Shown one piece after another: positions 1,980 to 17,011 of a stretch of 40,141 nucleotides of DNA (its first letter is position 1; each line of letters starts with the position of its first letter). Both the position numbers and the translations under genes were made by a program. This stretch comes from a virus (taxonomy: Duplodnaviria; Heunggongvirae; Uroviricota; Caudoviricetes): IMG/VR virus record IMGVR_UViG_2534682091_000016; one strand, given 5' to 3'. The notes below the pieces were generated by a model, which was not told the DNA's origin, made no database searches, and was given only the letters and a program-made list of their open reading frames with translations.

Positions 1980-3080
1980 TTATTCCATTTCAAGATCATC
2001 AATCTTCACTTCGAGTTCAATACTGGTTGTAAAACCGTTATCCGGGCTGACGGTATGTGTCAGAGTCGTAATGGTCCATTCCGCATCATCTATCGGCTGT
2101 TTAAAACCACTGACCTTCACAGGCATTTCCGTGTAGAGATCTGCCCGCCCTTCTGCCAGTTGTAGCGAAAATGACGCAACGCCGCGTTGCAGGCGTTCCC
2201 ACTGCATTTTCGCCGCTCGTTCGGCGTTGCTCCGGTTGGCATAAGTGCGATTAAGTACCAGCACGTTTTCATCCGTACCCACCAGGTAATCGCCCTGCTT
2301 CGCTTCTGGCTCTTTCTTCTGCTTCTTAGTTCTGCGCTTACGCTTCACCGTGGTGCTTTCTTTCTTCGCAGGTTCGCGGGTATGCAACCAGCTGGCAATT
2401 ACGCCCGTGTAGGCTCCGCGATCTGCCAGGGTAAATCGGTGACTGTCGCCGTCCTTGCGTGTGATAGTGATCACTGGCAGAGGTTTACCAGTGGCGCTTT
2501 TGCCCTGCCCCTGCCTGATGAATAACAGATTGCCATTTTTCACCGACGCGATGGCACCGTACTGTCGCGCCAGCCGCATCAGAAAACTGCCGTCACTCTC
2601 ATTAGTCTGGTCTATATGCTCCACGGGCTTATCCGACAGGTCTTTACCCAGTGCCATCTTCAGCTTGTGCCGCACGGCTATTTCCTTCACCACTTCCCCG
2701 ACGGTGGTCTTATGCCACGATTTTTCACGGCGGGTATTCAGCGTTTCCCGAAAATCAGCACTTCGCGCCCGGATAGTCAGGCGGTCCGGTGCGCCAGTGT
2801 GTTCAATCTCGTCCACCGTGAATGCTCCTTTCGGGAAAAGCGGCTGCCCCTTCCAGCCCAGCGCCAGCGTAATGACAGCACCACGGCGCGGCAGCGCTAT
2901 TTTTCCATCGGCGTCGTCCAGCTCCAGATCAAGCTGGTCCGCTTCAAAGCCCCGGTTATCCGTCAGCGTCAGCCTCATCAGGCGGTTATCCAGCACAGTG
3001 GTGATATCCCTGCCCTCAATACTGATGCTGAATGCGGGAGTTTTGTTGCCTTTGTTAAGCAGTTCAGAGCTGAAATTCAC
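1980..3080 (-). CDS. Tail protein D (late control gene D family)
   Basis: 366 aa, position after U and before ogr, P2 gpD-like length and sequence character. Confidence 0.85.
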   Translation of the reverse strand: MNFSSELLNKGNKTPAFSISIEGRDITTVLDNRLMRLTLTDNRGFEADQLDLELDDADGKIALPRRGAVITLALGWKGQPLFPKGAFTVDEIEHTGAPDRLTIRARSADFRETLNTRREKSWHKTTVGEVVKEIAVRHKLKMALGKDLSDKPVEHIDQTNESDGSFLMRLARQYGAIASVKNGNLLFIRQGQGKSATGKPLPVITITRKDGDSHRFTLADRGAYTGVIASWLHTREPAKKESTTVKRKRRTKKQKKEPEAKQGDYLVGTDENVLVLNRTYANRSNAERAAKMQWERLQRGVASFSLQLAEGRADLYTEMPVKVSGFKQPIDDAEWTITTLTHTVSPDNGFTTSIELEVKIDDLEME

Positions 3081-3562
3081 GACAGCAGCCCTCCCACCGT
3101 TTTACCGATATCGCTTAAGGCAGACGTTGCCGTGTCCTGCAGATTATTCAGTTGCGTACTGAGATCACCGAACATATCGGACAGGGATTCATCCACCCGT
3201 TTGAGCGACAGGGTGAACTCAATCCGGCGCGGCATACCATCGCGGAAAAACTCCGTTTTAGTCTGATTTATTCCCTCAATCACATACATGCCGTAAATGG
3301 TGCCGCTGCCTTCAATCAGGGGCCATGCTTTCCCCTGTTCTGCCATCTGCTCCAGTGCCAGCAACGACAGCCTGCCACCTGTTATCTCCGGCATAAGAAC
3401 ACCGGAAAGCGTCAGCATGTCGTTGTCCGGCCCCAGAAACTGCGTGGACGGACGTCGGTTTACCCGGCTGTTTGCCGCATGTCGCCAGCTGCGTTGATAC
3501 TGCAGCTCCTGATACGGCACGGTGCGCAGCATAAACACGTACAATCCCAGCACCATCATCAT
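3077..3562 (-). CDS. Tail protein U
   Basis: 161 aa, overlaps D start by 4 nt and follows the tape measure gene; P2 gpU synteny. Confidence 0.8.
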   Translation of the reverse strand: MMMVLGLYVFMLRTVPYQELQYQRSWRHAANSRVNRRPSTQFLGPDNDMLTLSGVLMPEITGGRLSLLALEQMAEQGKAWPLIEGSGTIYGMYVIEGINQTKTEFFRDGMPRRIEFTLSLKRVDESLSDMFGDLSTQLNNLQDTATSALSDIGKTVGGLLS

Positions 3563-6500
3563 GCGTCGTATCCCCCCTGATCGCTGTAGTTACTCCTGGC
3601 TTTTGCCTTCAGCCTGCGTTCACGTTCATCAAGCTGGCGGGCCACCTCCCGCGCAATATCCTGCGCACTTTGTCCTGGCTGCGTCTGGATGATGATCTGC
3701 GTCGGTGCCTCAATCCTGTAAACGGGCGGCACAGTGGCTGCGCGACTCACAATTGCTTCTCCACCTTTCGCGGGAAGTGCCAAAGGGTGCAACGGTGGAA
3801 GCTCTGCTGGCGCGGCAGCAACGCCCATCATTCCGGCGACAACCGCAGCCAGTGCAGCGGTATTTCTCCGGCTGGTCACGTTTGCCGGGCCGTTGACAAT
3901 TTCAGGCCCGTTTTCACCGACAATGCCAAACTGCCCGCGCGGGATATACCCGCCGCTGTCATACATCCCCGCAAAGCCATATCCCCATGATGGAAAACCA
4001 CCCGATGGTATCATCACTTTACCGTCTGCATTCACCGTCACAGGTTGCTGACGCGTCACGCTTTCCGGCAGTTTTGCCTTTGCGGCCTCTTTACTGACAA
4101 TGCCAAGTTTCTCCAGTAACCAGGAAACACCGGATTTCAGGGAGTCCAGCGGATGCATAACCATATTCAGCCCTTCCGCCAGTGCCTCCCCGAATCGTCG
4201 CCCCATTGCCGCTGCGCTCTGCAGTTCGGCAGAGGTCGACTTAACGGGCGTCAGCAGATCAGTAAACCAGCCCCACAGCGCCTGTACTTTATCGCCAATC
4301 CACTGAAATACAGGCTTAAGTGGTTCGAATGCTGCACTGACGGGACTAGCCGCCGCTTTGAATCCTTCCACCACGCCACCGAGAAATGCGTTGATGGGTT
4401 GCCAGTATTTCCAGACAACCAGTGCCACACCCGCCAGTGCAGTAACCACAAGACCTATCGGACTGAGCAGAGCACCTAACAGACCAGATATGGCATACAG
4501 GGCAACGCGCAGCATCGCCAGCGGACCGGATGCCAGTACTCGCAGCACCGCGCCTGCGGCAGCCAGTCCACCGCGTAGTGCTGCCAGTGGATTCATAAAC
4601 ATCACAACAACAGCACGTAAACCGGATAATCCAGACCGCAACAGTGCAACCGGCACACCTGCTACAGTTTTCAGGACATTCCCCGTCAGTGATGCCGTGC
4701 GGTGCAAAGACGACAACGGCGCAGTAAGTAAACCCGCTGCGTTGCCCGATGAAGCAAGCCCGCGTCGCAGCAGTGCCAGTGGAGCGCCAGCTAACCAAGA
4801 CAACGCTCTGCTGGTTCGTGTTACTGCTGCCGTAACGGAAGGTAACGTTTTGATACCCAGCACAGAGAATCCCAGACGGATGACTGCCAGCGGCCCCAGC
4901 ACTGCAGCCAGCGCCACCGCTAAGGTGCCGAGGCCTACGGTAACCGCAGCCACAACAGCCGCTACTTTCATCAGTGTGCCTGTCAGTTCCGGGTTAGCTT
5001 CCACCCAGCGGCGCAACGCCCCCGTGATGCTTTTCACCGTGTACAGAATATCCATCAGCGGCTGGCGCAGCGTTTCGCCCAGGCTGCTGAAGGTGTTCTG
5101 CGCTCCGGTTTTGACCAGCAACCACTGAGCAGAAAGTGAGTCTTTGTTGATGTCGGATTCTTTCTGCATGGAACCGAGCGCATCATTGCCCGCTGTCAGT
5201 TTTAGCTGGCGCTGCAGTTCCTGAAGGTTGTTTGCCAGTTTCGCCGCGTCATCACCAAACTCTTTACCAAACAACATGGTCATGGCAGACAGACGCTTGT
5301 CCTGCGGCAGTGCGTTCACCTTCTCCAGCACACGCTGGATAGTTCCCATCGCATCCTTCGTCATCTGCTTTTCAATCACTTCAGGATTGAGTTTCAGCAG
5401 ATTCATCCCTTCAAAGAAACTCTTGCTTTGCATGGTGGCAATGGACAATTCACGCACCATCGCGTTTGCTGCACTGGCTGCAACCTCCGGCGCAGCGCCC
5501 AGTGTCAGAAAGGTGGAACCCAGTGCCGCCGCTTTACGATAATCCAGACGGTCAGCCACACCGCCCAGACGTTGCATCACATCAATGATGTCCGCCCCTT
5601 TCGACATGGCGTTATCATCCAGATAGTTCAGCGCATCGCCGAGCTGTTCAATATTGCGGGTAGGTATTTTGTAGAGCTGGGCGATTTTCCCCAGACTTTC
5701 TGACAGTTCATCCGCTGGCAGCTCAAAGGCTGTTGCCGCCTTTGCTGCCGTACTGGCGAAGGCCAGCAGGTCACGTTTCTGGTCTTCCCAGCTGTCGTCA
5801 GGGTCTGCGACGTTCATGCGCGCACCACCTTCAACCAGTGCAGCGAAGTCCACCGCACCGTTTTCCATCGGCAACTGTTCGCTGGCAGCCTTGATGGCAT
5901 CCTGCATTTCATAAAAACGTGCAGTACGGTTTCCATTATCGTCACGCAGACCATTGACCTGCTTTGCCACACCTTTCATGGCATCTTCCATGCTGGTATA
6001 GCTTTTTACTGCCGCCATCACTGGCGTCCCCATTGCCAGCCCTGCAGCCGTGGTAGTGGCTCCGGCTCCTGCAATACGATCGCGCACCTCCAGCGAACGG
6101 GCATAACTGGCACGCGCCGCATTCATCCTGCGCTGAGCTTCACCCAGTCGCTTCAGCCGCGCCTCCTGTTTCGACAATTCCTGGTTATAACGTGATGTTT
6201 CACGGGCTAAACGGGCAGTTGCTCCCGCATCATCTTTCGCAGAAATTCCCGCCCGGTACAGTTCTGCACGCACAAGCGCCGTTTGCTTCTGCAAATATTT
6301 TTGTTGTTCTTCCAGGCGTTGGACTGCCAGCGTTTGCCGACCTAAAGCCACAAGGTGCCGTTGTGATGGTTGTTCCATCGCCTCCAGCTCAGAGCTAAGC
6401 AAATTAGCCTTCTGTCTGGCATAGTTCAGCCTGTCGCCTAACTTCTTGTTATCGGCCTGCAGCTTGCGAAATTTTTCCAGGCTGTTACCCGCCTGATTGA

Positions 6501-7119: not shown

Positions 7120-7635
7120 TCAGAGGCCGAGGGCGTTGCGGTGCGCTTCCATCAGGTCCACACCGTCCACAATTTCCACCATGTTGATAAGGTCCACTTC
7201 ATAGAGCACCTCACCATTGATGGTCAGCTTCGCGTAGCTGTTGGTACTGGTCACTTTGGTGGTGTTGCTTTCGCCCGTCTTCCACTCGCCGGAATCCACT
7301 TCTTTGTGACGTCCACGCACGACAAGCTCCACGGCCTGCACTTCCCCGGTATCGTCACGCTGGATAGAGCCGGTAAAGCGCAGCTGGATGCCATCCACCG
7401 TGGATTTGCCCATCTGCTTAAACAGCAGCAGTTCAGTACCACCAATGGAAAATTCTGTATCCAGTGCACTGTCATCCAGTCCCAGATCCACATCCACCGC
7501 CCCCGGCATACCGCCGCCGCGATACTTCTCATATTTGCGGGTGAATTTCGGCAGCGTCAGCGACTCAACGATCCCCTGCCAGTTGTTCCCGTCGTTAAAC
7601 AGGTTCAGATGTTTTAATTTGCGTGGTAAAGCCAT
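7120..7635 (-). CDS. Tail tube protein FII
   Basis: 171 aa, directly after the sheath gene, P2 FII synteny. Confidence 0.85.
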   Translation of the reverse strand: MALPRKLKHLNLFNDGNNWQGIVESLTLPKFTRKYEKYRGGGMPGAVDVDLGLDDSALDTEFSIGGTELLLFKQMGKSTVDGIQLRFTGSIQRDDTGEVQAVELVVRGRHKEVDSGEWKTGESNTTKVTSTNSYAKLTINGEVLYEVDLINMVEIVDGVDLMEAHRNALGL

Positions 7636-7644
7636 GTTGTCCCC

Positions 7645-8817
7645 TTACGCGCTGACCTGGCTGGCGAAATTCACCAGGTACTGATCGGTGATGCGCTGGC
7701 GCAGCATCAGATTTTCAAGTGGCGGCATTGGCGTGTAGTCATAGTCGATGGTGAGTTTTCCGGCTTTCAGCGTGTCTTTGTCGTTCACCGACTCATCCAG
7801 CCAGCAATCACCACCAATGAGATACCCCTGACTGACCAGGCTGCGCATTTTGGCGCGGATACCTTCGATAATGTCGCGGGCCAGCGACGGGTTAAGCGGT
7901 TTATCCACCGCCCACATGTGTGCTTCTGCCATCGTGTCCATCAGCACCTGCGCCGTGCGGGTGTAGTTTTCGAAGGCAAAGAGCGGGTCATCACTCAGGC
8001 AGCGGGAACCCCAGAAGCGGAAACCGTCTTTACGCACAAGCGTGGTGACGTCGTTCTGGTTCAGCAGACCTGCATCGGTTGCCGGGTCCTGCAGATCCCA
8101 GAACACATCAGCAGAAATTCCGGTGACACCGTTCACGCCCACGTTGGACAGGCTTTTGTGCCATCCAGTCTGCTCATCAATTTTGGCGCGCAGACCGAGC
8201 GCACGAGCGGTGGCATATGCCGTTGCTTCGGCATTCAGCACCGTGTCCCAGCCAGTAAAGTCAGGCCAGATCAGCATCCCTTCGCGCTGGCTGAAGTTTT
8301 CGCGGTAAGTGATCGCCTCCTGCACTGTCTTGCAGCCATACGCTGACAGGTAAGCAAACCCACGCAGGCTTTGCGCCACGCTCAGCAACTCAGTAGCTAC
8401 CGCCTTGGTGTCGTGGCCTGGCACGCCGAGAATGCGCGGTTTAACGCCGAGCTGTGACTGGGCAGATAACAGGGCTTTCATACCTGTTTTTTTACCTTCA
8501 GCAGTCACTGCGCCGATGATATTGGTCGTGGTTTCTTCTTCCGTTTCACCCTGCGGCACACGCACAACAACGGTCACGGGTTTTGCCTGGTCAGCGATGG
8601 CATCCAGCGAGCGGGCCAGTGTGCCGGACTCACCCGCTTTACCGCTGGCAGTCAGCACATCAGTGATCAGCACGGGTTTATTAAGAGGAAACATTTTTGC
8701 ATCGGCATCATCGCCCGTGCAGACCATACCCACGATGGCGGTGCTCACCGTGGTAATAGATCGGGTGCCTTCGTTGACTTCAACAACGCGCACCCCGTGG
8801 TGGTAATCCTGAGCCAT
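7645..8817 (-). CDS. Contractile tail sheath protein FI
   Basis: 390 aa with P2 FI-like length and position ahead of FII. Confidence 0.88.
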
Positions 8818-8893
8818 AGTGGCGAACCTCCTGATTGGATTAGGCTTCGCCCTATGTTGAAGTGATTGTGCCTGACAAACAGCTAAGCGCAGT

Positions 8894-8911
8894 TGTACCG
8901 TTATTCATACA
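8894..8911 (-). promoter_or_regulatory. Putative Ogr-type activator site (TGT-N12-ACA) of the FI late promoter
   Basis: TGTACCGTTATTCATACA lies about 77-94 nt upstream of the FI start codon; P2 late promoters carry TGT-N12-ACA near -55. Confidence 0.5.
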
Positions 8912-8959
8912 AAATGACGGTATTTGTCTGCTTGCAGGGATAATCAACATAATGCTGAT

Positions 8960-9532
8960 TCAGGGGGATTCATTGCTCTTATTTGCCGGAAATTTTCTAT
9001 AAATTGTGGAAACACCTACATCAAAAATCAGTGCAATACGCTGTCTTGATTCTCCGGCCTCGAGTAAACGTCCAATCTGTGCCCACTGTTCGGTGGTCAA
9101 CTTAGGACGGCGTCCACCTACTCTGCCTTTGGCGCGAGCTGCAGCAAGCCCCGCCCTGGTACGTTCAACTATCAGTTCGCGCTCCATTTCAGCCAGGGCA
9201 CCCATGACATGAAAAAAGAAACGGCCCATTGGGGTACTGGTATCAATACTGTCAGTCAGGCTTCGGAAATTCACGCCACGCTGGCGCAGCTCTTCTATCA
9301 GCGTAACGAGATGCCGCATACTGCGCCCCAACCTGTCCAGCTTCCAGACAACCAGAGTGTCACCTGCCGATAATGTCCTGAGCAGTTTTTTCAGTCCCGG
9401 TCTGTCGGACTTAGTGCCACTGATTTTGTCCTCAAAAATCCGCTCACATCCCGCGCAGTTCAGCGCACTACGTTGCAAATCGGTGTTCTGGTCATTTGTT
9501 GACACGCGTACATAGCCAATAAGCATGATCAA
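8960..9532 (-). CDS. Serine DNA invertase (Gin/Hin/Pin/Cin family)
   Basis: N-terminus MLIGYVRVSTNDQNTDLQR...LVVWKLDRLGRS and C-terminal HTH align closely with Mu Gin as recalled; sits next to an invertible tail-fibre segment. Real start probably the third codon. Confidence 0.88.
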   Translation of the reverse strand: MIMLIGYVRVSTNDQNTDLQRSALNCAGCERIFEDKISGTKSDRPGLKKLLRTLSAGDTLVVWKLDRLGRSMRHLVTLIEELRQRGVNFRSLTDSIDTSTPMGRFFFHVMGALAEMERELIVERTRAGLAAARAKGRVGGRRPKLTTEQWAQIGRLLEAGESRQRIALIFDVGVSTIYRKFPANKSNESP

Positions 9533-9581
9533 TCCCCTGAATAAAAACCGGGGATGATGCCAGTTAGCCGTTATCTCTGCA

Positions 9582-9607
9582 TTTTCATAAACGTTGGTTT
9601 GGGAGAA
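9582..9607. repeat. Invertase crossover site 1 (gix/hix-like, 26 bp)
   Basis: TTTTCATAAACG-TT-GGTTTGGGAGAA: two imperfect 12-bp half-sites around a 2-bp core; 14 bp are an exact inverted repeat of 11148..11161. Confidence 0.75.
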
Positions 9608-10060
9608 GGCTCTGCATTACCCGTTGGTGTCCCTGTTCCATGGCCTTCCGCCACTCCGCCAACAGGCTGGCTGAAATGCAACGGCGCGGCTTTTTCTGCT
9701 GAAGAATACCCGGAACTGGCAAAGGCTTATCCGACAAATAAATTGCCTGATTTACGTGGTGAGTTTATTCGCGGCTGGGATGACGGGCGCGGGGTTGACT
9801 CTGGACGAGGTTTATTGACGGCGCAGGCGGAAACAAAGATAACTAACCACCACGGCAATGGCGGTAATGCTGATGATATTTCGGCTGGTGTTTCCGGTTC
9901 ACCTCCCAAAAACTTTGTCAGAAACGCGGATTCGGCAGTTAATGCTGGTTCTGGTTTTACCGCTTTTGGCTCTGGAAATTTGACAATGAATGGTGTTACT
10001 TCTTATTTCGGTGTCCGTCCACGCAACATCGCATTTAACTACATTGTGAGGGCTGCATAA
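9596..10060 (+). CDS. Alternative tail-fibre C-terminal cassette (silent in this orientation)
   Basis: Frame opens with the shared GLGE junction codons at site 1 and encodes a collar-type tail-fibre C-terminus (PVGVPVPW...GWLKCNGA...LPDLRGEFIRGWDDGRG); no own promoter or start expected. Confidence 0.65.
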   Translation, partial: GLGEGSALPVGVPVPWPSATPPTGWLKCNGAAFSAEEYPELAKAYPTNKLPDLRGEFIRGWDDGRGVDSGRGLLTAQAETKITNHHGNGGNADDISAGVSGSPPKNFVRNADSAVNAGSGFTAFGSGNLTMNGVTSYFGVRPRNIAFNYIVRAA

Positions 10061-10665
10061 TGGATAGCACTGTATTAAATAGCGAGTTTATTGCCACGAA
10101 GGCGGGGAATATTACTGTCTATAATTATGATGGTGAAACACGGGAATATATTTCCATATCGACTGAATATCTTGCCGTTGGTGTCGGCATTCCGGCATGT
10201 TCCTGTTTAGATGCTCCAGGCGCATACAAAGCTGGTTATGCAATCTGCCGTTCTGCAGATTTTAACTCATGGGAATATGTGCCAGACCATCGCGGTGAAA
10301 TTGTCTATGGCATCGAAACGGGGGAATCAAAAGAAATTACTGTGCCGGGGGATTACCCTGAAAATACGACCACTTTTGCCCCATTAACGCCATACGATAA
10401 ATGGGATGGTGAGAAATGGGTAACAGATACCGAGGCACAGCATAGCGCCGCAGTAGATGCAGCAGAAGTACAGCGCCAGTCTCTGATTGATGCTGCTATG
10501 GCTTCCATCAGTCTGATTCAGCTGAAATTACAGGCCGGGCGGAAACTGACGCAGGCAGAAACAACCCGGCTTAACGCTGTGCTGGATTACATTGACGCGG
10601 TGACGGCAACAGATACCAGCACCGCGCCTGATATTATTTGGCCTGTATTCCCTGAGACTGATTAA
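10060..10665 (+). CDS. Tail fibre assembly protein (Tfa/gpG/U family), alternative-orientation copy
   Basis: 201 aa, start overlaps the stop of the alternative fibre cassette (ATGA-type junction); size and character of phage tail-fibre assembly chaperones. Confidence 0.65.
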   Translation: MDSTVLNSEFIATKAGNITVYNYDGETREYISISTEYLAVGVGIPACSCLDAPGAYKAGYAICRSADFNSWEYVPDHRGEIVYGIETGESKEITVPGDYPENTTTFAPLTPYDKWDGEKWVTDTEAQHSAAVDAAEVQRQSLIDAAMASISLIQLKLQAGRKLTQAETTRLNAVLDYIDAVTATDTSTAPDIIWPVFPETD

Positions 10666-10855
10666 CCTCAATTAGTATTGGTTCGCCTTTCTCATTAATT
10701 GTTAGCTCCATGCCCTGAGGAATTTCTGTCATAGTAAAAAACCAGTTGTCCTCCGGTAATTCAATAGCCCCGGTCACGTCATGAAGACCGGGGATTACTT
10801 CAGTCAAAGTAACTGGATTAAACAGGCGCACAATAAACCCTCCAGGAAAAAGCAT
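10634..10855 (-). CDS. Short ORF after H (possible truncated tail fibre assembly protein for the current orientation)
   Basis: Only minus-strand reading frame available between the H stop and the convergent Tfa gene; under 75 aa and overlapping both neighbours. Confidence 0.25.
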   Translation of the reverse strand: MLFPGGFIVRLFNPVTLTEVIPGLHDVTGAIELPEDNWFFTMTEIPQGMELTINEKGEPILIEVNQSQGIQAK

Positions 10856-12209
10856 TTGATGATGGTCTGCCGTCGTACATCTGGCAGCGGGCATAAAAGC
10901 CGGTATTTGTTACCTGATCATCCACGATCATTGAAACGTGAACATTATTAGGTGTGCTCTCGTAATCCGTTCTTATTCTTTCCGCGATACTGATAAAACG
11001 TGAAAGTTTAGGCAGTGCAATTGGGTAAACAACTTTAGCCAGTCCATTATCATTAGATCCACCGGTTCCAAATACTTCTATTGCACCATCTGACCAGCGT
11101 ATCCATGCACCATTGGCATTAGCTCCTCGCTGAATGACATATCTGGCTTCTCCCAAACCAAGGTATGCGAGAAGACCAGCTACATCCTTTCCACTCAAAT
11201 TGGTAAGCGTATTGTCCAGCGGTTGTTTACCTGCCAGCGCATTAAGCATTGTCGTGGCAAAGTTCGGATCATTCCCCAGTGCCGCCGCCAGTTCGTTCAG
11301 TGTATCCAGTGCCGCAGGTGCAGAACCCACCATTGCTGCAATCGCTGATTTCACAAAAGCTGTAGTGGCAATCTGTGTATTGTTGACCGACTGTGCCGCA
11401 GTAGGTGCTGTTGGCGTTCCGGTGAGTGCCGGACTCGACAGCGGTGCTTTTAGTGCCAGCGCATTGTTAATGGTGGTACTGAATTTCGGGTCATTGTTAA
11501 TGGCTGCGGCAATTTCTTTCAGTGTGTCCAGCGTGGCTGGCGCACCGTTAATCAGAGCAGTAATAGCGGCCTGAACAAACTCAGTGGTCGCAATCCGCGT
11601 GGTGTTATTTCCTGCTGCAGGCGTCGGCGCTTTTGGTTCTCCGGTAAATGTCGGATTATGTTTCTGCGCATACTGGGTATGAGGATCTTGTGCGGCAATG
11701 TGGTTTCTCATCTGGTCATCCACATACAGCTTTAATTCCAGGACTTCATCATCCACGTATTTACGGGTTGCCAGCACTACAGCAGGGTCGATTTTCAGGG
11801 TGATATTGTCCGTACTGCTGGTAATCAGCACCATGCGCACGGTCTGGGTGCGCCCGCTGCCTTCAGCCAGTTGCGGCTTATAGCTTTCCGGGCAGTTGCC
11901 CACGGCAATCAATGCCCCGGACTCATCAAACAGGCCCACTTCACGTATCCACCAACCGCCCTCGTTTTCAGGGATCACCTGTTCAGCAATAATCTGGCTG
12001 CTGTTCTGCGGGTCGATATAAAGCATATTCAGCGCAGCCCGGCGTTTCTCATTTACCAGTGCCGTCTGCTTTGCGTCCGGAGTTGGCAATACTCCGCCGC
12101 CATCGCCCACCGCCATATGGGTAATTTTTAGCGGCACACCGAGCGCGGCGGCGCTGGCAAGTTTCGCCGCGCCAATATCCGTCAGCAGGGTATAAAATTT
12201 TGTGCTCAT
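10818..12209 (-). CDS. Tail fibre protein H (constant N-terminus plus currently expressed variable C-terminus)
   Basis: 463 aa with tandem Ala/Thr-rich fibre repeats (TTAFVKSAIAA, ATLDTLKE/NELAAA); crossover site 2 lies inside it at the LAYLGLGE codons. Confidence 0.85.
   Translation of the reverse strand: MSTKFYTLLTDIGAAKLASAAALGVPLKITHMAVGDGGGVLPTPDAKQTALVNEKRRAALNMLYIDPQNSSQIIAEQVIPENEGGWWIREVGLFDESGALIAVGNCPESYKPQLAEGSGRTQTVRMVLITSSTDNITLKIDPAVVLATRKYVDDEVLELKLYVDDQMRNHIAAQDPHTQYAQKHNPTFTGEPKAPTPAAGNNTTRIATTEFVQAAITALINGAPATLDTLKEIAAAINNDPKFSTTINNALALKAPLSSPALTGTPTAPTAAQSVNNTQIATTAFVKSAIAAMVGSAPAALDTLNELAAALGNDPNFATTMLNALAGKQPLDNTLTNLSGKDVAGLLAYLGLGEARYVIQRGANANGAWIRWSDGAIEVFGTGGSNDNGLAKVVYPIALPKLSRFISIAERIRTDYESTPNNVHVSMIVDDQVTNTGFYARCQMYDGRPSSNAFSWRVYCAPV
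11148..11173. repeat. Invertase crossover site 2 (gix/hix-like, 26 bp), inside H
   Basis: TTCTCCCAAACC-AA-GGTATGCGAGAA, in inverted orientation relative to site 1. Confidence 0.75.
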
Positions 12210-12811
12210 GGATTCACTCTCATTGTGTCAATAACATGGACCGCCCCGCCTTCATGCGCGGTGCCACCGGAAATAATCGTTTCGTTGATATACGGATAGA
12301 TCGTGATTTCTTCGCCAAGATAGCTGGCAACCCCCATCCAATGTGGGCCGCTGGTCTGCAGATTGATGGACATGCCGATCATGTGACGGCTACATGGTTT
12401 GGCATCACTTATCAGCCTCTCAAGTTCCAGATAGGTATCTTCAGTGATGCCCTGGTCCTGCACGCCGATATCCAGGCGAAACGTTCCCGGTGCTTCTCCG
12501 GTCTGCCACCATTCAATAATGCGGATCAGGAAGCCGAACGGCTCCACCACCCGCCGCACAGCACTGGTGGTTCCTTTATGCTGATGTATATAAAAAGCAT
12601 CCTTCACCACCTGGCGTTTGACGCTTTCTGTCCAGCTCTCGTCCCAGCGATCCACAGAGAACGCCCAGGCGAGATAAGGCAGGAAACTGACTGGACAGGT
12701 TGCCGGATTCCACAAGTCACGCAGCGGCACCTGCAAATCAGAAATCCCGCTGCACGCTTGCGCCAGTCGGCGCTCCAGTGGCGTTGAACCCGGTGGCAGC
12801 AGACTATTCAT
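12206..12811 (-). CDS. Baseplate protein gpI
   Basis: 201 aa, 4-nt overlap with H start, P2 gpI position. Confidence 0.8.
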   Translation of the reverse strand: MNSLLPPGSTPLERRLAQACSGISDLQVPLRDLWNPATCPVSFLPYLAWAFSVDRWDESWTESVKRQVVKDAFYIHQHKGTTSAVRRVVEPFGFLIRIIEWWQTGEAPGTFRLDIGVQDQGITEDTYLELERLISDAKPCSRHMIGMSINLQTSGPHWMGVASYLGEEITIYPYINETIISGGTAHEGGAVHVIDTMRVNP

Positions 12812-13712
12812 CAGTTCCCCCGTTGGTTACGCTCCACTGCGTACATGATGCCGCCTGCGTTTTGTTCAGGACCACATCCGCCAGCGGCGAAGCCAGTTCC
12901 ACACGCTGCACACCTTCAACATGCAACGCGGCAAAGATGGCGCTACGGCGAATATCCCGACCAAGCCGCGTCTGACTGGCGATGTACTTCTGCAGGCTGG
13001 CTTTTGCCGCTGCCATTACCGGCTCTGCTTCTGGTCCCGGATAGAGAAAAATGGTGGCTTCCACGCGGTACGGGATGATTTCTGCACTGCGAACCGTCAG
13101 ACGGTCAGCCACCGGGCGGACGTTCTCACTGTTCAGAGCTTTTTCCACCACGTCCAGCAGGTCTTTTTCTGCAGTTCCATCGCCTTCGCGGCTAAGGACA
13201 GTCAGCACCACCTCTGCAGGTGCCGGGCTGGTTGCACTGGCATCCGCCACCCGACCGTCGGCGCTTCGGGCATGAAATTCATAAGCTGCAGTTGGCCCCG
13301 CAACTGAAAGCCCTTCAAAGGCTGCAGGCACACGCAGGCGTAACGCTTCATCGCTTTCCATCACAGCTGCAACGGGCGGCACAGCGTCATTATCAGCAGG
13401 CGTCACCGTCAGGCGTTTCACGTTGTAGTTGGCAGCGAGCTGGTCAAGATCGCTGCCCATCGCGTAAGCCACCATCACAGCCTGCGCGGCTTCGTTAATG
13501 CGCTGGCGCAGAAGCAACTCACGGTAAGCGTTCTCCTGCAGCAATTTGGTGACGGGTTCAGATTCCAGTTCCAGCGTGCGGATCACTGCTTCCTGCTCAT
13601 CTTTCGGATGAAGCGCCACAAATTCTGCCTTGCGTTCGGCAAGCAGCGTCTCAAAGTCCGGCACATCCACAATCTGCGGCGCAGGCAACTGCGAAAGGTC
13701 AATCACTGCCAT
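12804..13712 (-). CDS. Baseplate protein gpJ
   Basis: Start placed at MAVIDLSQLPAP, which resembles the P2 gpJ N-terminus and overlaps the gpW stop; longest ORF extends to 13751. Confidence 0.8.
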   Translation of the reverse strand: MAVIDLSQLPAPQIVDVPDFETLLAERKAEFVALHPKDEQEAVIRTLELESEPVTKLLQENAYRELLLRQRINEAAQAVMVAYAMGSDLDQLAANYNVKRLTVTPADNDAVPPVAAVMESDEALRLRVPAAFEGLSVAGPTAAYEFHARSADGRVADASATSPAPAEVVLTVLSREGDGTAEKDLLDVVEKALNSENVRPVADRLTVRSAEIIPYRVEATIFLYPGPEAEPVMAAAKASLQKYIASQTRLGRDIRRSAIFAALHVEGVQRVELASPLADVVLNKTQAASCTQWSVTNGGTDE

Positions 13713-14058
13713 TCTCTGCTCCTGTTGATACGGAAAGGGAAACAGGCACACCGTTATTACGCCGCCCGGTCAGCTCCACCACCATTGAACCGTCAAAATT
13801 GCTGTTGATGGTGATGGAATCCAGCGTCAGCCGTGGCTCCCAGCGACTCAGCGCCACATACACTGCCGACATGACCTGCAGGCGTAATGCCGGATTTTGT
13901 GGCTGGGCTATCAGTGTCGACAGCAGGGAACCATATTCACGACGGGCAATGCGGCTACCCTGCGGTGTCAGTAGAATGTCCCGCACCGACTGACGCAGAT
14001 GGTCAATATCAGTAATGGCTTTACCGCTGGTATTGTTCATCCCGATATAAAGCGTCAT
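13699..14058 (-). CDS. Baseplate wedge protein gpW
   Basis: 119 aa between V and J, P2 gpW synteny. Confidence 0.8.
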   Translation of the reverse strand: MTLYIGMNNTSGKAITDIDHLRQSVRDILLTPQGSRIARREYGSLLSTLIAQPQNPALRLQVMSAVYVALSRWEPRLTLDSITINSNFDGSMVVELTGRRNNGVPVSLSVSTGAENGSD

Positions 14059-14633
14059 ACCGGGCCTCCGGTTGTATCGCCGCCTTTCAGGACGCCAGTA
14101 TGCTGATGCGCATCAACCACGATCCCGTTAGAACTCATCGCTCCGCCGCCCTGGGTAACGCCACCATTGATCACCACTTCACTGTTAATGCGCGTGCGGT
14201 CAGCCTCCAGTACAAACTCACTGGTTTTCATGGTGATGTTGTCAGCGGCCTCAATGACCATTGATTTGATGCCCCTGACATGCCAGCGTCCGGTGGCGGG
14301 TTCGTATTCAAACCAGCCACCGTCAGGATGTTCTGTCACGCAGGCGTCCGCCGACGTCGACGGTGGCGCGAACTGATTCGAATAGATGGCGGGTAACGCA
14401 AAGGCGGTTTCCAGATTGCCGCCCAGACTCAGCAGCACCACCTGCTCACCTTCCGATGGTCGCCACCATGTGCGGGCATTCCCGGCACGCAGCGTCAGCC
14501 AGCTGATCCAGTTAGTTTCAAGCTCGCCCGTTTTCACCCGGCAAAGCCAGTTTTCCCGGTCCACTTCGGTGACTACACCTGTGCGGATCAGGTTGGTGAT
14601 AAGGCGCATGATTTCGGTTAATTGTGCGTTCAT
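14055..14633 (-). CDS. Baseplate spike protein gpV
   Basis: 192 aa; N-terminus and C-terminal HTGxxxGGxTxxP motif resemble P2 gpV. Confidence 0.85.
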   Translation of the reverse strand: MNAQLTEIMRLITNLIRTGVVTEVDRENWLCRVKTGELETNWISWLTLRAGNARTWWRPSEGEQVVLLSLGGNLETAFALPAIYSNQFAPPSTSADACVTEHPDGGWFEYEPATGRWHVRGIKSMVIEAADNITMKTSEFVLEADRTRINSEVVINGGVTQGGGAMSSNGIVVDAHQHTGVLKGGDTTGGPV

Positions 14634-14669
14634 AGGGAAAGGTTGCCATCAGGGGAAGAAAGGCGGCAG

Positions 14670-14687
14670 TGCCGCAACTTGTATCAG
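14670..14687 (-). promoter_or_regulatory. Possible late promoter activator site (TGT-N12-ACA) upstream of V
   Basis: TGTATCAGTGCTGGTACA in the S-V intergenic region; only 36-53 nt from the V start codon, so spacing is atypical. Confidence 0.3.
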
Positions 14688-14701
14688 TGCTGGTACAAAA
14701 A

Positions 14702-15148
14702 TCACCCCGCCAACCATTGCAGAATCATGTCGCGGGTCATTGCCTCAACATCATCATTTACGCCCAGAAGGCGACGCTCTGCGTAACGGACCTCCGGTCC
14801 TTTGCGGCTGACGCGATCACGCAGGCCATAATGGTGAACGCGGGCAATGCGCTGCACCTTACCTTCAAACTGCACGCTGGCAGAATCCTCGCTGGCGGCG
14901 GTTTTCAGGTATTTTGTGGTGCGAAGTTTTGTAAACATCTGCCGTTTGATACGGCCTTTTTTACTGCGTGCTGTTACTCGCCTCGGTTCATAGCTGCTGC
15001 CATCAGGATTGAGTTGCATCCTGATGTTCTGCTGCTGTGTCCGGCGCAGTTCCTGCGCCAGCTGGCGCATCATGCGGCTTCTTGCGGCTGGTTCCAGATT
15101 CGCCAGCAAAGCACTCAGCCAATCGTCCACCTTCTGCAGTTCAGCCAC
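14702..15148 (-). CDS. Tail completion protein gpS
   Basis: 148 aa, P2 gpS position after R. Confidence 0.75.
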   Translation of the reverse strand: MAELQKVDDWLSALLANLEPAARSRMMRQLAQELRRTQQQNIRMQLNPDGSSYEPRRVTARSKKGRIKRQMFTKLRTTKYLKTAASEDSASVQFEGKVQRIARVHHYGLRDRVSRKGPEVRYAERRLLGVNDDVEAMTRDMILQWLAG

Positions 15149-15593
15149 GTTTCACCGTCCACATTTCTTCAGGTTCATCGGGTTCCGCTACCGCTTCAAC
15201 ACTCGACACACTGCCGTCAGTGCTGACCAGCACACGCTCCGTCAGTTGCAGGTTAAGGCTGATATCACAGACATCGTTGCGCAAAATATCCACCTCAAAG
15301 GTGAATAGTTTTTCCCGTAACGCCGGGTTATTGATGGCATCGGGCTGGTTATCACGCAGCCACAGCAAAACCGGGGCCATCAGCAGATTCTGGTCGCCGC
15401 TGAAATCCTCAATCACCACGTTGAGGGTATAACGGTACTCCCATGACATGGAGCTGGCCCCCGTGGCAACCAGCGAACCGTTATCCACAAACAGATGCAG
15501 TTTGTCCGGGTTATTGCGGACATAAGGCACTGCTTTATTGAGGGCGTGGCGCAGGGACTGTGGTTTGTTCACTGTTTCGCTCCTGACACGCAA
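15141..15593 (-). CDS. Tail completion protein gpR
   Basis: 150 aa, P2 gpR position after the lysis genes. Confidence 0.75.
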   Translation of the reverse strand: MRVRSETVNKPQSLRHALNKAVPYVRNNPDKLHLFVDNGSLVATGASSMSWEYRYTLNVVIEDFSGDQNLLMAPVLLWLRDNQPDAINNPALREKLFTFEVDILRNDVCDISLNLQLTERVLVSTDGSVSSVEAVAEPDEPEEMWTVKRG

Positions 15594-15825
15594 TAATCAT
15601 GTCCACTTTGTCTGCACAGACCGCCCAGGCGGCCTCCGTTTCATCCAGCAATGCGTTCAGATCACCGTTAGTGCGCGGCGCTGCCTGCTCCAGCCGACAC
15701 GGCGTCACTCGCGGACAACCACTGACGGTAAGCTGCACCTCCGGTGAGTGCCGGACGTTCCCGCAGCCGGATAATGTCAGCAGGCAAAGGAGTATCAGCC
15801 CAGCGGCGTAAATCCTCGTTCTCAC
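15535..15825 (-). CDS. Outer-membrane spanin lipoprotein (LysC/Rz1-like)
   Basis: Lipoprotein signal with lipobox (LLCLLTLSGCG); out-of-frame overlap with the LysB gene, as for Rz/Rz1 and P2 lysB/lysC. Confidence 0.65.
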   Translation of the reverse strand: MRTRIYAAGLILLCLLTLSGCGNVRHSPEVQLTVSGCPRVTPCRLEQAAPRTNGDLNALLDETEAAWAVCADKVDMIIACQERNSEQTTVPAPRPQ

Positions 15826-16096
15826 GTTTCAGTTCCTCGATCCGGCGTTGTTGTTGTCTCAGCAGTGCGCTGGTCTGTTCTGCTTCGGCGTAGAGCCGCG
15901 CCTGCTCCCGATTGTTGGTTTCAGCCAGAATGGACAGACCGATCAGCTGGCTGTTTTTCTTCGTCAGTTCTTGCGCTTTACTTTTCAGCGCCGCGCGCTG
16001 CGTTTCGATGGTGTGGCTGGCGCTGTTAAGCCGCCACGACTGCCAGCCCAGCGTAACGAGTGCCAGCGCCCCCACTACTGCCAGCGCACGCGTCAT
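15668..16096 (-). CDS. Inner-membrane spanin (LysB/Rz-like)
   Basis: 142 aa with N-terminal TM helix and coiled-coil body, directly after the endolysin gene. Confidence 0.7.
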   Translation of the reverse strand: MTRALAVVGALALVTLGWQSWRLNSASHTIETQRAALKSKAQELTKKNSQLIGLSILAETNNREQARLYAEAEQTSALLRQQQRRIEELKRENEDLRRWADTPLPADIIRLRERPALTGGAAYRQWLSASDAVSAGAGSAAH

Positions 16097-16608
16097 AGTC
16101 CAGCTCCTTTAAGGCACCAGGCCATCTCCCGCGCACGGCGGTTATCCAGCCCCTGATTAAACACACCTTTTACATACACCCAGCGCGGCAACTGTCGGCA
16201 CGCATCCGCCCAGCGCCGCTGATTGAGCAATTTCACCAGCGTGGAACTGCAGGCATTGCCCGTACCCACGTTGAAGGCAAACGACACCGCAGCGTCATAC
16301 ACCTTCTGCGGCGGCTGTTGCTTCACACACCTTTCCAGCGCCCGCTCCACACGCAGCACGTTGGAGATCAGCCCTTCTGCTGCCTGTCGCTCCGTAATGG
16401 TTTTGCCGGGAATGACGCCCGACGTATTACCAATGCCGTCGGTCCAGACACCCGCGCTGCACTGATACGGCTGCAGACGACAACCTTCGTAATCGGCAAT
16501 CAGTTTCAGTCCCTCCACGGAGGTGTGAAGCTGCTGAAAACCCGGCAGCGTGGCAGCAATAGCCAGCACGGTCCCGACAAGGCAGCGTTTAACGATTGAT
16601 GGATTCAT
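16093..16608 (-). CDS. Endolysin, lysozyme type with N-terminal signal-anchor-release segment
   Basis: 171 aa; hydrophobic N-terminus (LVGTVLAIAATL) followed by a lysozyme-like domain (EG...DxxGxxTxGxG); follows the holin gene. Confidence 0.8.
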   Translation of the reverse strand: MNPSIVKRCLVGTVLAIAATLPGFQQLHTSVEGLKLIADYEGCRLQPYQCSAGVWTDGIGNTSGVIPGKTITERQAAEGLISNVLRVERALERCVKQQPPQKVYDAAVSFAFNVGTGNACSSTLVKLLNQRRWADACRQLPRWVYVKGVFNQGLDNRRAREMAWCLKGAGL

Positions 16609-16804
16609 AGTCCTCCCGCGAGATCTGCCCGTCGCGCAGAAGCTGGTAGGCTTTGTGTTTGTAGTACCAGTTGATAGCCAGCATCAGCACACCAATCATC
16701 AGGCCGCCCAGCGTTGAGGCATCTTTGATGGACAAATCGCCCAGCCAGGCCAGCACGACGGCGATGCAATACGTGATAAAGGCGCTGATTCGCTCAAGCG
16801 TCAT
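16589..16804 (-). CDS. Holin (small, two-TM)
   Basis: 71 aa with two hydrophobic helices and charged C-terminus, immediately upstream of the endolysin. Confidence 0.7.
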   Translation of the reverse strand: MTLERISAFITYCIAVVLAWLGDLSIKDASTLGGLMIGVLMLAINWYYKHKAYQLLRDGQISREDYESINR

Positions 16805-16807
16805 AAT

Positions 16808-17011
16808 TCAGTCCCATAGCTGGACGGTCTGCACGGTGGTGGTGGTCGGAATGTCCGGCAGCTCCACCTGCAGCCCGTGAGGTAAAAAGGGGCCGTATTC
16901 GGCAAGCCCCGGATTTGCCTTCAGTACCTGCTCCGTGACACCCTGCGTGCGCCCGTAATGACGCCAGCAAAGCGCGTCCACCGTGTCATACTGATGCGCA
17001 CGCACTTTCAT
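16808..17011 (-). CDS. Tail protein X
   Basis: 67 aa; MKV...DTVDALCWRHYGRT...VLKANPGLAE...LPHGLQVELPD closely resembles P2 gpX as recalled. Confidence 0.85.
   Translation of the reverse strand: MKVRAHQYDTVDALCWRHYGRTQGVTEQVLKANPGLAEYGPFLPHGLQVELPDIPTTTTVQTVQLWD

Follow-up and report, generated by a model that had tools for sequence, protein, structure and literature searches.

Why should one of the two alternative tips of a phage tail fiber be paired with a full-length assembly protein and the other with an open reading frame (ORF) so short that it could be taken for debris? The question is raised by the window analyzed here, a 40,141-nucleotide stretch of DNA from a virus of the Caudoviricetes (IMG/VR record IMGVR_UViG_2534682091_000016), which carries a P2-like (Fels-2/Wadgaonvirus-like) prophage with a Pin-type invertible segment at the end of its tail-fiber gene H. 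Cassette A of the segment, expressed in the window, encodes a 113-aa tip (tip A) followed by the short ORF, whereas the silent cassette B encodes a 154-aa tip and a 201-aa tail fiber assembly (Tfa) protein (both tips counted after a shared G-L-G-E). An initial annotation of the window had described the switch, the swap of fiber C-termini and this size asymmetry, all of which stand. It had also suggested that the present orientation is locked or decaying and lacks its chaperone, or that tip A folds without one, and these suggestions are not supported. We report that the short ORF is a conserved partner of tip A under purifying selection and is not a product of decay. The asymmetry is that of modular cassettes having two kinds of partner, a two-domain Tfa and an N-domain-only protein, rather than one of loss. 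Taken as a whole, the locus is probably best explained as a working Pin-type switch in a P2-like prophage in which tip A has an N-domain-only partner, a reading in which we have good but not full confidence.

The short ORF spans 10634-10894 and encodes 86 aa from its first ATG, 73 aa from an ATG at 10855 and 65 aa from a GTG at 10831. The GTG is most likely the true start: it is preceded by GGAGG at a distance of 7 nt, all homologs begin with M-R-L-F-N-P, which in the window corresponds to this GTG, and the RefSeq annotation at this position is a 65-aa 'hypothetical protein'. A Shine-Dalgarno-like TGGAG together with an ATG or GTG start is conserved in 22 copies of the gene. So defined, the gene overlaps the fiber stop codon by 14 nt, being read in the +2 frame with respect to the final fiber codons (S-W-R-V-Y-C-A-P-V-stop), and its final 10 codons overlap the final 10 codons of the convergent 201-aa Tfa gene (32 nt).

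The encoded protein has no match in Pfam (including Caudo_TAP) or in NCBIfam. It matches positions 1-66 of the 145 positions of phrog_5400, a family of unknown function (E value 8e-25), and has 81 close homologs of 55-90 aa. In a tblastn search against phages the first 56 aa of the 128-aa product of Cronobacter phage JK004 gene_1 aligned to the short ORF (34% identity, E 4e-5). The remainder of the gene_1 product is a typical Tfa C-terminal domain with Caudo_TAP above threshold, and the cassette directly in front of the gene encodes a homolog of tip A. Searching 1.84 billion representative proteins with a profile gave 32 clusters, comprising short forms of 55-70 aa and long forms of 125-147 aa; in the long forms P0093, P0099 and P0106 the same N-domain is followed by Caudo_TAP. 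When the short and long families were compared by hhalign, the short family matched the long one over positions 2-60 of the latter, with a probability of 99.7% (E 1.4e-26). The homology to Tfa N-terminal domains that the initial annotation had raised for checking is therefore present, and as the alignment covers only that domain, the short ORF encodes a stand-alone Tfa N-domain. The protein ends right after the N-domain, and a Tfa C-domain hidden Markov model (HMM) found no C-domain following on the same strand in the loci analyzed. Long and short forms are interspersed among the relatives. We also observed the same N-domain followed by Phage_tail_APC (PF16778) in place of Caudo_TAP in P0101, and likewise in P0102 and P0097. 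Joined as it is to Caudo_TAP, to Phage_tail_APC or to nothing, the N-domain appears to be a tip-binding domain that has been combined with at least two C-terminal modules, or with none.

Related loci were mapped by tblastn. The scan of species-representative genomes gave only two (Erwinia aeris and Intestinirhabdus alba) and that of viral contigs gave 49, making 51 in all. Wherever a locus extends far enough upstream, the coding sequence for tip A runs ~11 nt beyond the start of the short ORF, with tip A identities across the set running from 100% down to 35%. Eight P2-like loci have no invertase (L012, L043, L044, L045, L047, L049, L056 and L057) and are arranged as gpI, a fiber ending in tip A, the short ORF and the sheath. 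In these loci the short ORF is the only gene between fiber and sheath and takes the place of P2 gene G. The Tfa C-domain HMM, which scores 95-105 bits on control loci, found nothing in seven of the eight and only a weak opposite-strand trace in L049 (E 0.008). In another locus, L041, both cassettes of an invertible segment carry domain-only partners, of 61 and 71 aa. The expressed L041 tip and the JK004 tip are 74% identical, and the 71-aa partner of the former shares 51% identity with the N-domain of the full-length JK004 Tfa; hence very similar tips are served by either form.

Selection was assessed on codons 6-55 of 18 diverse copies of the short ORF. Synonymous sites were saturated (proportion of synonymous differences, pS, 0.65-0.9) with a nonsynonymous proportion (pN) of ~0.2, and the ratio of nonsynonymous to synonymous substitution rates (dN/dS) had a median of 0.15 and a maximum of 0.42. 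The reading frame was open in 18/18 copies, whereas the other frames contained 0-10 stops and none was open in all copies.

Three other accounts of the absent C-domain were considered and rejected. Its production by frameshifting or read-through fails because the downstream strand is antisense to the 201-aa Tfa gene and has no C-domain match. Its provision in trans by the Tfa of the opposite cassette fails as a general explanation because eight loci lack a second cassette and both partners in L041 are domain-only. A recent truncation of the short ORF is ruled out by the divergence and selection data. Note that the L049 trace lies at ~4200-4500, between the short ORF and the sheath, and hints that the ancestor of the fixed fiber/short-ORF layout was invertible and lost its other cassette and its invertase by deletion.

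A sequence search of tip A against PDB chains gave nothing below an E value of 1 and a fold search was therefore needed. The AlphaFold2 (AF2) model of fiber residues 340-463, a monomer of moderate confidence (predicted local distance difference test score, pLDDT, 76), matched the foot domains of the R1/R2 pyocins (6CL5, 6CL6, 6CT8 and 6CXB) and AP22 gp53 (4MTM) with a Foldseek probability of 1.0, E values of 4e-6 to 1e-4 and a template modeling (TM) score of ~0.55. Tip A is thus predicted to be a lectin-like jellyroll foot of the R-pyocin/AP22 gp53 fold. The match to Pfam Gp53-like_C (PF21882) was below threshold (E 0.14, 13.2 bits versus a cut-off of 24.9). Soluble R-pyocin fiber protein required a co-expressed downstream chaperone, which co-purified with the fiber (PMC6363177). 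Proteins of this fold class normally have a helper. A role of this kind for the short protein is consistent with that pattern, though not proven by it.

The switch that exchanges the two cassettes is an ordinary, working Pin-type host-range switch of an already-known kind. Among inverted repeats in 8500-12500 the longest is 9582-9608/11147-11173 (27 nt, 81% complementary), all others being 12-17 nt. The repeat search and codon mapping confirmed the two inverted 26-bp sites of the initial annotation and their location on G-L-G-E codons. Written as 12-2-12, the invertase-proximal site is TTTTCATAAACG TT GGTTTGGGAGAA and the reverse complement of the distal site is TTCTCGCATACC TT GGTTTGGGAGAA. 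The two agree at 21/26 positions; the inner half-site GGTTTGGGAGAA and the TT core are identical and all five differences are in the outer half-sites. Both sites align with known invertase sites: the proximal site matches the invertase-proximal pix site of e14 (L006:3606-3631) at 26/26 positions and the distal site matches the e14 site inside stfP (L006:1779-1804) at 23/26, whereas 200 shuffles gave no pix-site match. The inner half-site, read as GGT TTG GGA GAA, encodes G-L-G-E both in the 463-aa H product and in the silent plus-strand ORF 9554-10060, cassette B having no constant fiber N-terminus of its own. A simulated inversion at the central TT gave an in-frame 504-aa fiber in place of the present 463-aa protein. 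The invertase next door, earlier described as Gin-like, has the Pfam domains Resolvase (2.7e-53) and HTH_7 (1.5e-15), matches phrog_125 'DNA invertase' (5e-101) and shares 86% identity with PinE of e14. Its identity to the E. coli EC43 invertase, whose accession (WP_000905033.1) is also that of the E. coli W enzyme, is 99%. The gene is better conserved over its first 210 nt, where 190/210 positions match pinE, than in its 3' part.

Both orientations exist in nature. When all complete E. coli genomes were searched by Megablast with the 3.4-kb region of the window and an artificially inverted version of it (at least 80% of the query being required), 20 genomes had the orientation of the window and 39 the inverted one, and several sister strains appeared on opposite lists. 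Two isogenic pairs were compared base by base. Strains 64 and 61 (L007/L008, ~93% identical to the window) are identical over 9521 bp save for an exact 1658-bp reverse complement, and E. coli W and HBUT-L (L009, NC_017635, and L010; 98.5% identical to the window) are identical over 10662 bp save for an exact 2799-bp reverse complement. In these pairs the differences start directly inside the identical inner half-sites, and the annotations of strains 64/61 and of W/HBUT-L include both fiber forms. The site contexts of E. coli W are identical to those of the window. Inversions of tail-fiber genes in P2-like prophages of enteropathogenic E. coli (EPEC) have been shown experimentally (PMC4272514), and the window's own copy presumably inverts at a useful rate.

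Three further observations concern these segments. An insertion sequence (IS) element of the IS3 family lies between the fiber stop codon and the short ORF in E. coli W (L009:4923-6180) and in HBUT-L (L010). The insertion replaces the first codons of the short ORF so that the annotated product begins MCHYTLTEV, and the segment, enlarged by the IS to 2.8 kb, has still inverted between W and HBUT-L, which derives from W. E. coli NCTC8623 (NZ_LR134234.1) has one copy in the window orientation and one inverted (4934110-4937582 and 13365-16837), ~20 kb apart across the record start, which could be two prophage copies or the assembly of a mixed population. In L039 (IMGVR_UViG_2648501390_000003) and L021 two complete and different fiber genes point from either side toward one shared tip A/short ORF/Tfa/tip B segment, and no invertase lies between the two; each fiber gene has its own gpI (55% versus 97% identical to that of the window). 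This arrangement could have arisen by site-specific recombination between the sites of two P2-like prophages, which would be a large chromosomal inversion, or could be an assembly artefact.

In the mechanism that we propose, the neighboring serine invertase recombines the two 26-bp pix-like sites at the central TT/AA dinucleotide and so fuses the constant 350-aa fiber part in frame to one of the two tip cassettes, each of which brings its own accessory gene. Cassette B contributes a Collar-domain tip and a canonical two-domain Tfa, and cassette A the predicted foot tip and a 65-aa protein that is likely to be translationally coupled to the fiber. The latter corresponds to the tip-binding N-terminal domain of a Tfa alone, without the helical C-terminal domain thought to drive trimerization. 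It probably binds the tip and acts, without a C-domain, as a chaperone or a retained accessory subunit. Tfa proteins are modular according to the account in PMC9608196, which summarizes North et al. 2019, the variable N-domain binding the fiber tip and the conserved C-domain mediating trimerization. Whether stand-alone Tfa N-domains of 55-70 aa form a distinct, recurrent class of minimal partners that assemble or decorate foot tips without a C-terminal oligomerization domain is, in our judgement, evenly balanced.

Other explanations were weighed against this one. A segment locked in its present orientation, with inactive sites or an inactive invertase, is very hard to credit. The divergence of the two sites at 5/26 positions, confined to the outer half-sites, would suit it, as would the lack of a positively identified enhancer, but the same divergent outer half-sites are present in e14, which inverts (PMC4272514), and E. 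coli W and its derivative HBUT-L differ in orientation despite site contexts identical to those of the window and a 99% identical invertase. The invertase ORF is, moreover, intact and retains the catalytic-serine motif GYVRVSTNDQ. Because near-identical elements occur in both orientations in isogenic strains, the earlier suggestion of a locked orientation is unsupported. It is also improbable that the short ORF is the nonfunctional remnant of a full-length Tfa shorn of its C-domain, with cassette A decaying or its tip folding unaided. The existence of full-length relatives with the same N-domain means that a truncation happened at some point, the short forms have no Pfam or NCBIfam match, and in E. 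coli W the IS3-family element removes the start of the short ORF. Yet a length of 58-69 aa has been kept across Escherichia, Salmonella, Enterobacter, Erwinia and Intestinirhabdus down to ~60% identity, with the low dN/dS, saturated synonymous sites and uniformly open frame given above. The start codon and Shine-Dalgarno-like motif are conserved, and the gene is the sole accessory gene in the eight non-invertible loci, with L041 having domain-only partners in both cassettes. Neither decay nor a missing chaperone thus describes a gene that is a conserved and selected partner of its tip type across genera, and the notion that the tip folds without a helper finds no support in a tip predicted to share its fold with fibers that needed one.

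The short protein may be functional and yet not be a folding chaperone, being either a retained adhesin or specificity subunit at the tip or having an unrelated role such as adsorption or exclusion; we consider this unlikely, but it merits some weight. The protein keeps only the tip-binding module, its strict co-inheritance with the tip fits any tip-binding function, and the Tfa proteins of Mu and Ur-lambda stay on virions and contribute to receptor recognition (PMC9608196). Set against this, its position and translational coupling directly after the fiber gene are those of chaperones of the P2 gene G type. Several points count against our own explanation, a working switch with an N-domain-only partner. 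Production of the 65-aa protein and its binding to the fiber are putative, being deduced from the DNA, and as the published model gives the C-domain the key role in chaperoning, a domain-only form may do something else. AF2 gave a small beta-rich domain for the short protein with confidence in only one of five models (pLDDT 86 versus ~57), and in a fold search this model had no significant PDB match, including to 5YVQ; with a single confident model and no PDB match, structure gives no independent support. The non-invertible loci are prophages or metagenome contigs rather than phages proven to be infectious. Inversion was seen in relatives ~93% and 98.5% identical to the window rather than in the window's own strain, and a Fis-dependent enhancer was not positively identified, the Fis-consensus matches in the invertase gene being too degenerate to call.

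If stand-alone N-domains do form a class of their own, the domain held to carry the key conserved function of Tfa proteins would be dispensable for some fibers, and the current model of a binding N-domain and a trimerizing C-domain can be tested directly on a natural Tfa that lacks the conserved C-domain. We found no description of truncated or C-domain-less Tfa proteins in the literature; as far as the literature searched and three curated family libraries show, a domain-only Tfa is undescribed, although it is a modest variant. PHROG 5400, listed as 'hypothetical protein' of unknown function, can now be labeled the cognate partner of one defined tail-fiber tip type, and one representative of the short family, P0021, is present on ~1000 contigs. 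Retargeting of P2-like phages, R-type pyocins and other tailocins requires that tip and helper be moved together, and for this tip the unit would be only ~0.55 kb. The switch itself adds nothing new, being a typical Pin-type host-range switch of which essentially the same copy occurs in many further genomes, among them that of E. coli W.

The surroundings of the segment are those of a P2-like (Peduoviridae) tail module, which occupies 7.1-13.8 kb of the window on the minus strand in the expected order of gpJ, gpI, H, accessory genes, sheath FI and tube FII. Phage 500465-1 (Peduoviridae, Wadgaonvirus) and the record CP019275 cover 86-90% of window positions 1-25000 at ~96% identity, and the window beyond its first 25 kb, to ~35.8 kb, resembles RE2010 and Fels-2. 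The tip of cassette B matches Pfam Collar at 1.1e-15, and residues 78-199 of the Tfa encoded beside it match Caudo_TAP (PF02413) at 5e-30 (104.8 bits versus a cut-off of 22.1). In window positions 8700-12300 promoter-like sites were no commoner than in shuffled sequences. The same region has 12 terminator-like hairpins versus 3.3 expected from shuffles, and one of them (9565 to 9546, minus strand) could insulate the invertase gene from late transcription of the fiber operon. The accessory genes of the two cassettes run toward each other, and in every case their 3' ends share 20-32 nt (window 10634-10665; L001:3269-3297; L002:2965-2993; L004:3167-3186), an overlap that is dual-coding on opposite strands and that leaves no space for a terminator between the cassettes.

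Table 1 Features of the tail module and invertible segment in window coordinates, with the basis for each assignment
Feature	Position	Strand	Basis or remark
Tube	7120-7635	-	ORF map
Sheath	7645-8817	-	ORF map
DNA invertase (serine recombinase, Pin-like), 188 aa from ATG 9526	8960-9526	-	Pfam, PHROG; frame open to TTG 9532
Putative terminator-like hairpin plus T run	9546-9565	-	Consensus scan; between proximal site and invertase start
Invertase-proximal 26-bp recombination site, pix-like	9582-9607	.	26/26 to e14 pix; left boundary of natural inversions
Invertible segment, core to core, ~1.57 kb	9594-11161	.	Isogenic pairs and in silico inversion
Silent tip cassette B, 154 aa after G-L-G-E, Collar domain	9596-10060	+	Pfam Collar, phrog_523
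Two-domain Tfa, 201 aa, partner of cassette B	10060-10665	+	Pfam Caudo_TAP, phrog_105
Short partner gene of cassette A, 65 aa from GTG 10831	10634-10831	-	phrog_5400, hhalign, dN/dS
Expressed fiber gene H, 463 aa	10818-12209	-	Pfam Phage_tail_fib 4e-65, residues 1-150
Tip A, 113 aa after GLGE	10821-11159	-	AF2 model matches foot domains
Distal 26-bp recombination site within fiber gene	11148-11173	.	23/26 to e14 stfP site; right boundary of natural inversions
Constant part of fiber H	11162-12209	-	350 aa
gpI	12206-12811	-	ORF map
gpJ	12804-13751	-	ORF map

Among P2-like phages and prophages, pro483, 500465-1, Cartapus, S164 and those of EPEC E2348/69 have the gene order of the window (gpJ, gpI, H, segment, invertase and sheath) with flanks of 84-94% DNA identity, and E. 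coli W, EC43 and the IMG/VR contig L019 carry essentially the same element. They differ in what the segment holds. Unlike the window, 500465-1 and CP019275 have Tfa genes of 145-200 aa on both sides, whereas in S164 tip A and the short ORF form the silent cassette rather than the expressed one. Cronobacter phage JK004 (L005, 93.8 kb) is laid out differently again: at 1987-4387 a 417-aa fiber gene, a 400-nt gap, a start-less tip cassette that begins LGE and a full Tfa gene lie on the same strand, which suggests a multi-cassette or shufflon-like fiber region in a large, unclassified phage.

The R1/R2 pyocin foot and AP22 gp53 share the predicted fold of tip A at a sequence identity of just 15-19%, and R-pyocin fibers are co-expressed with a separate chaperone, PA0621, whereas tip A is paired with the 65-aa protein. 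Like Mu Tfa (PDB 5YVQ), P2 gpG and Pam3 gp25, the short protein is encoded directly downstream of the fiber gene and is homologous to the N-terminal, fiber-specific domain of that family, but it lacks the defining feature of that family, a conserved helical domain at the C-terminus. In Mu and P1 both orientations encode full-length Tfa-type proteins (U and U'), and to our knowledge no domain-only partner has been described there. The Mu G segment with Gin and the P1 C segment with Cin (S-U versus S'-U') follow the same logic as the window, in that a serine invertase acts on 26-bp sites in the fiber gene and the tip and its cognate assembly gene are swapped together (PMC4272514, PMC9881135). 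The P segment of e14 with PinE (E. coli K-12; stfP/tfaP versus stfE/tfaE) likewise has its sites within the fiber ORF, a constant N-terminal part joined to alternative C-termini and convergent accessory genes that overlap at their 3' ends. It differs in being a defective lambdoid element rather than a P2-like prophage and in that both of its cassettes have annotated tail fiber assembly genes (TfaP, 137 aa, and TfaE, 200 aa), whereas in the window one of the two partners is a 65-aa protein consisting of the N-domain only.

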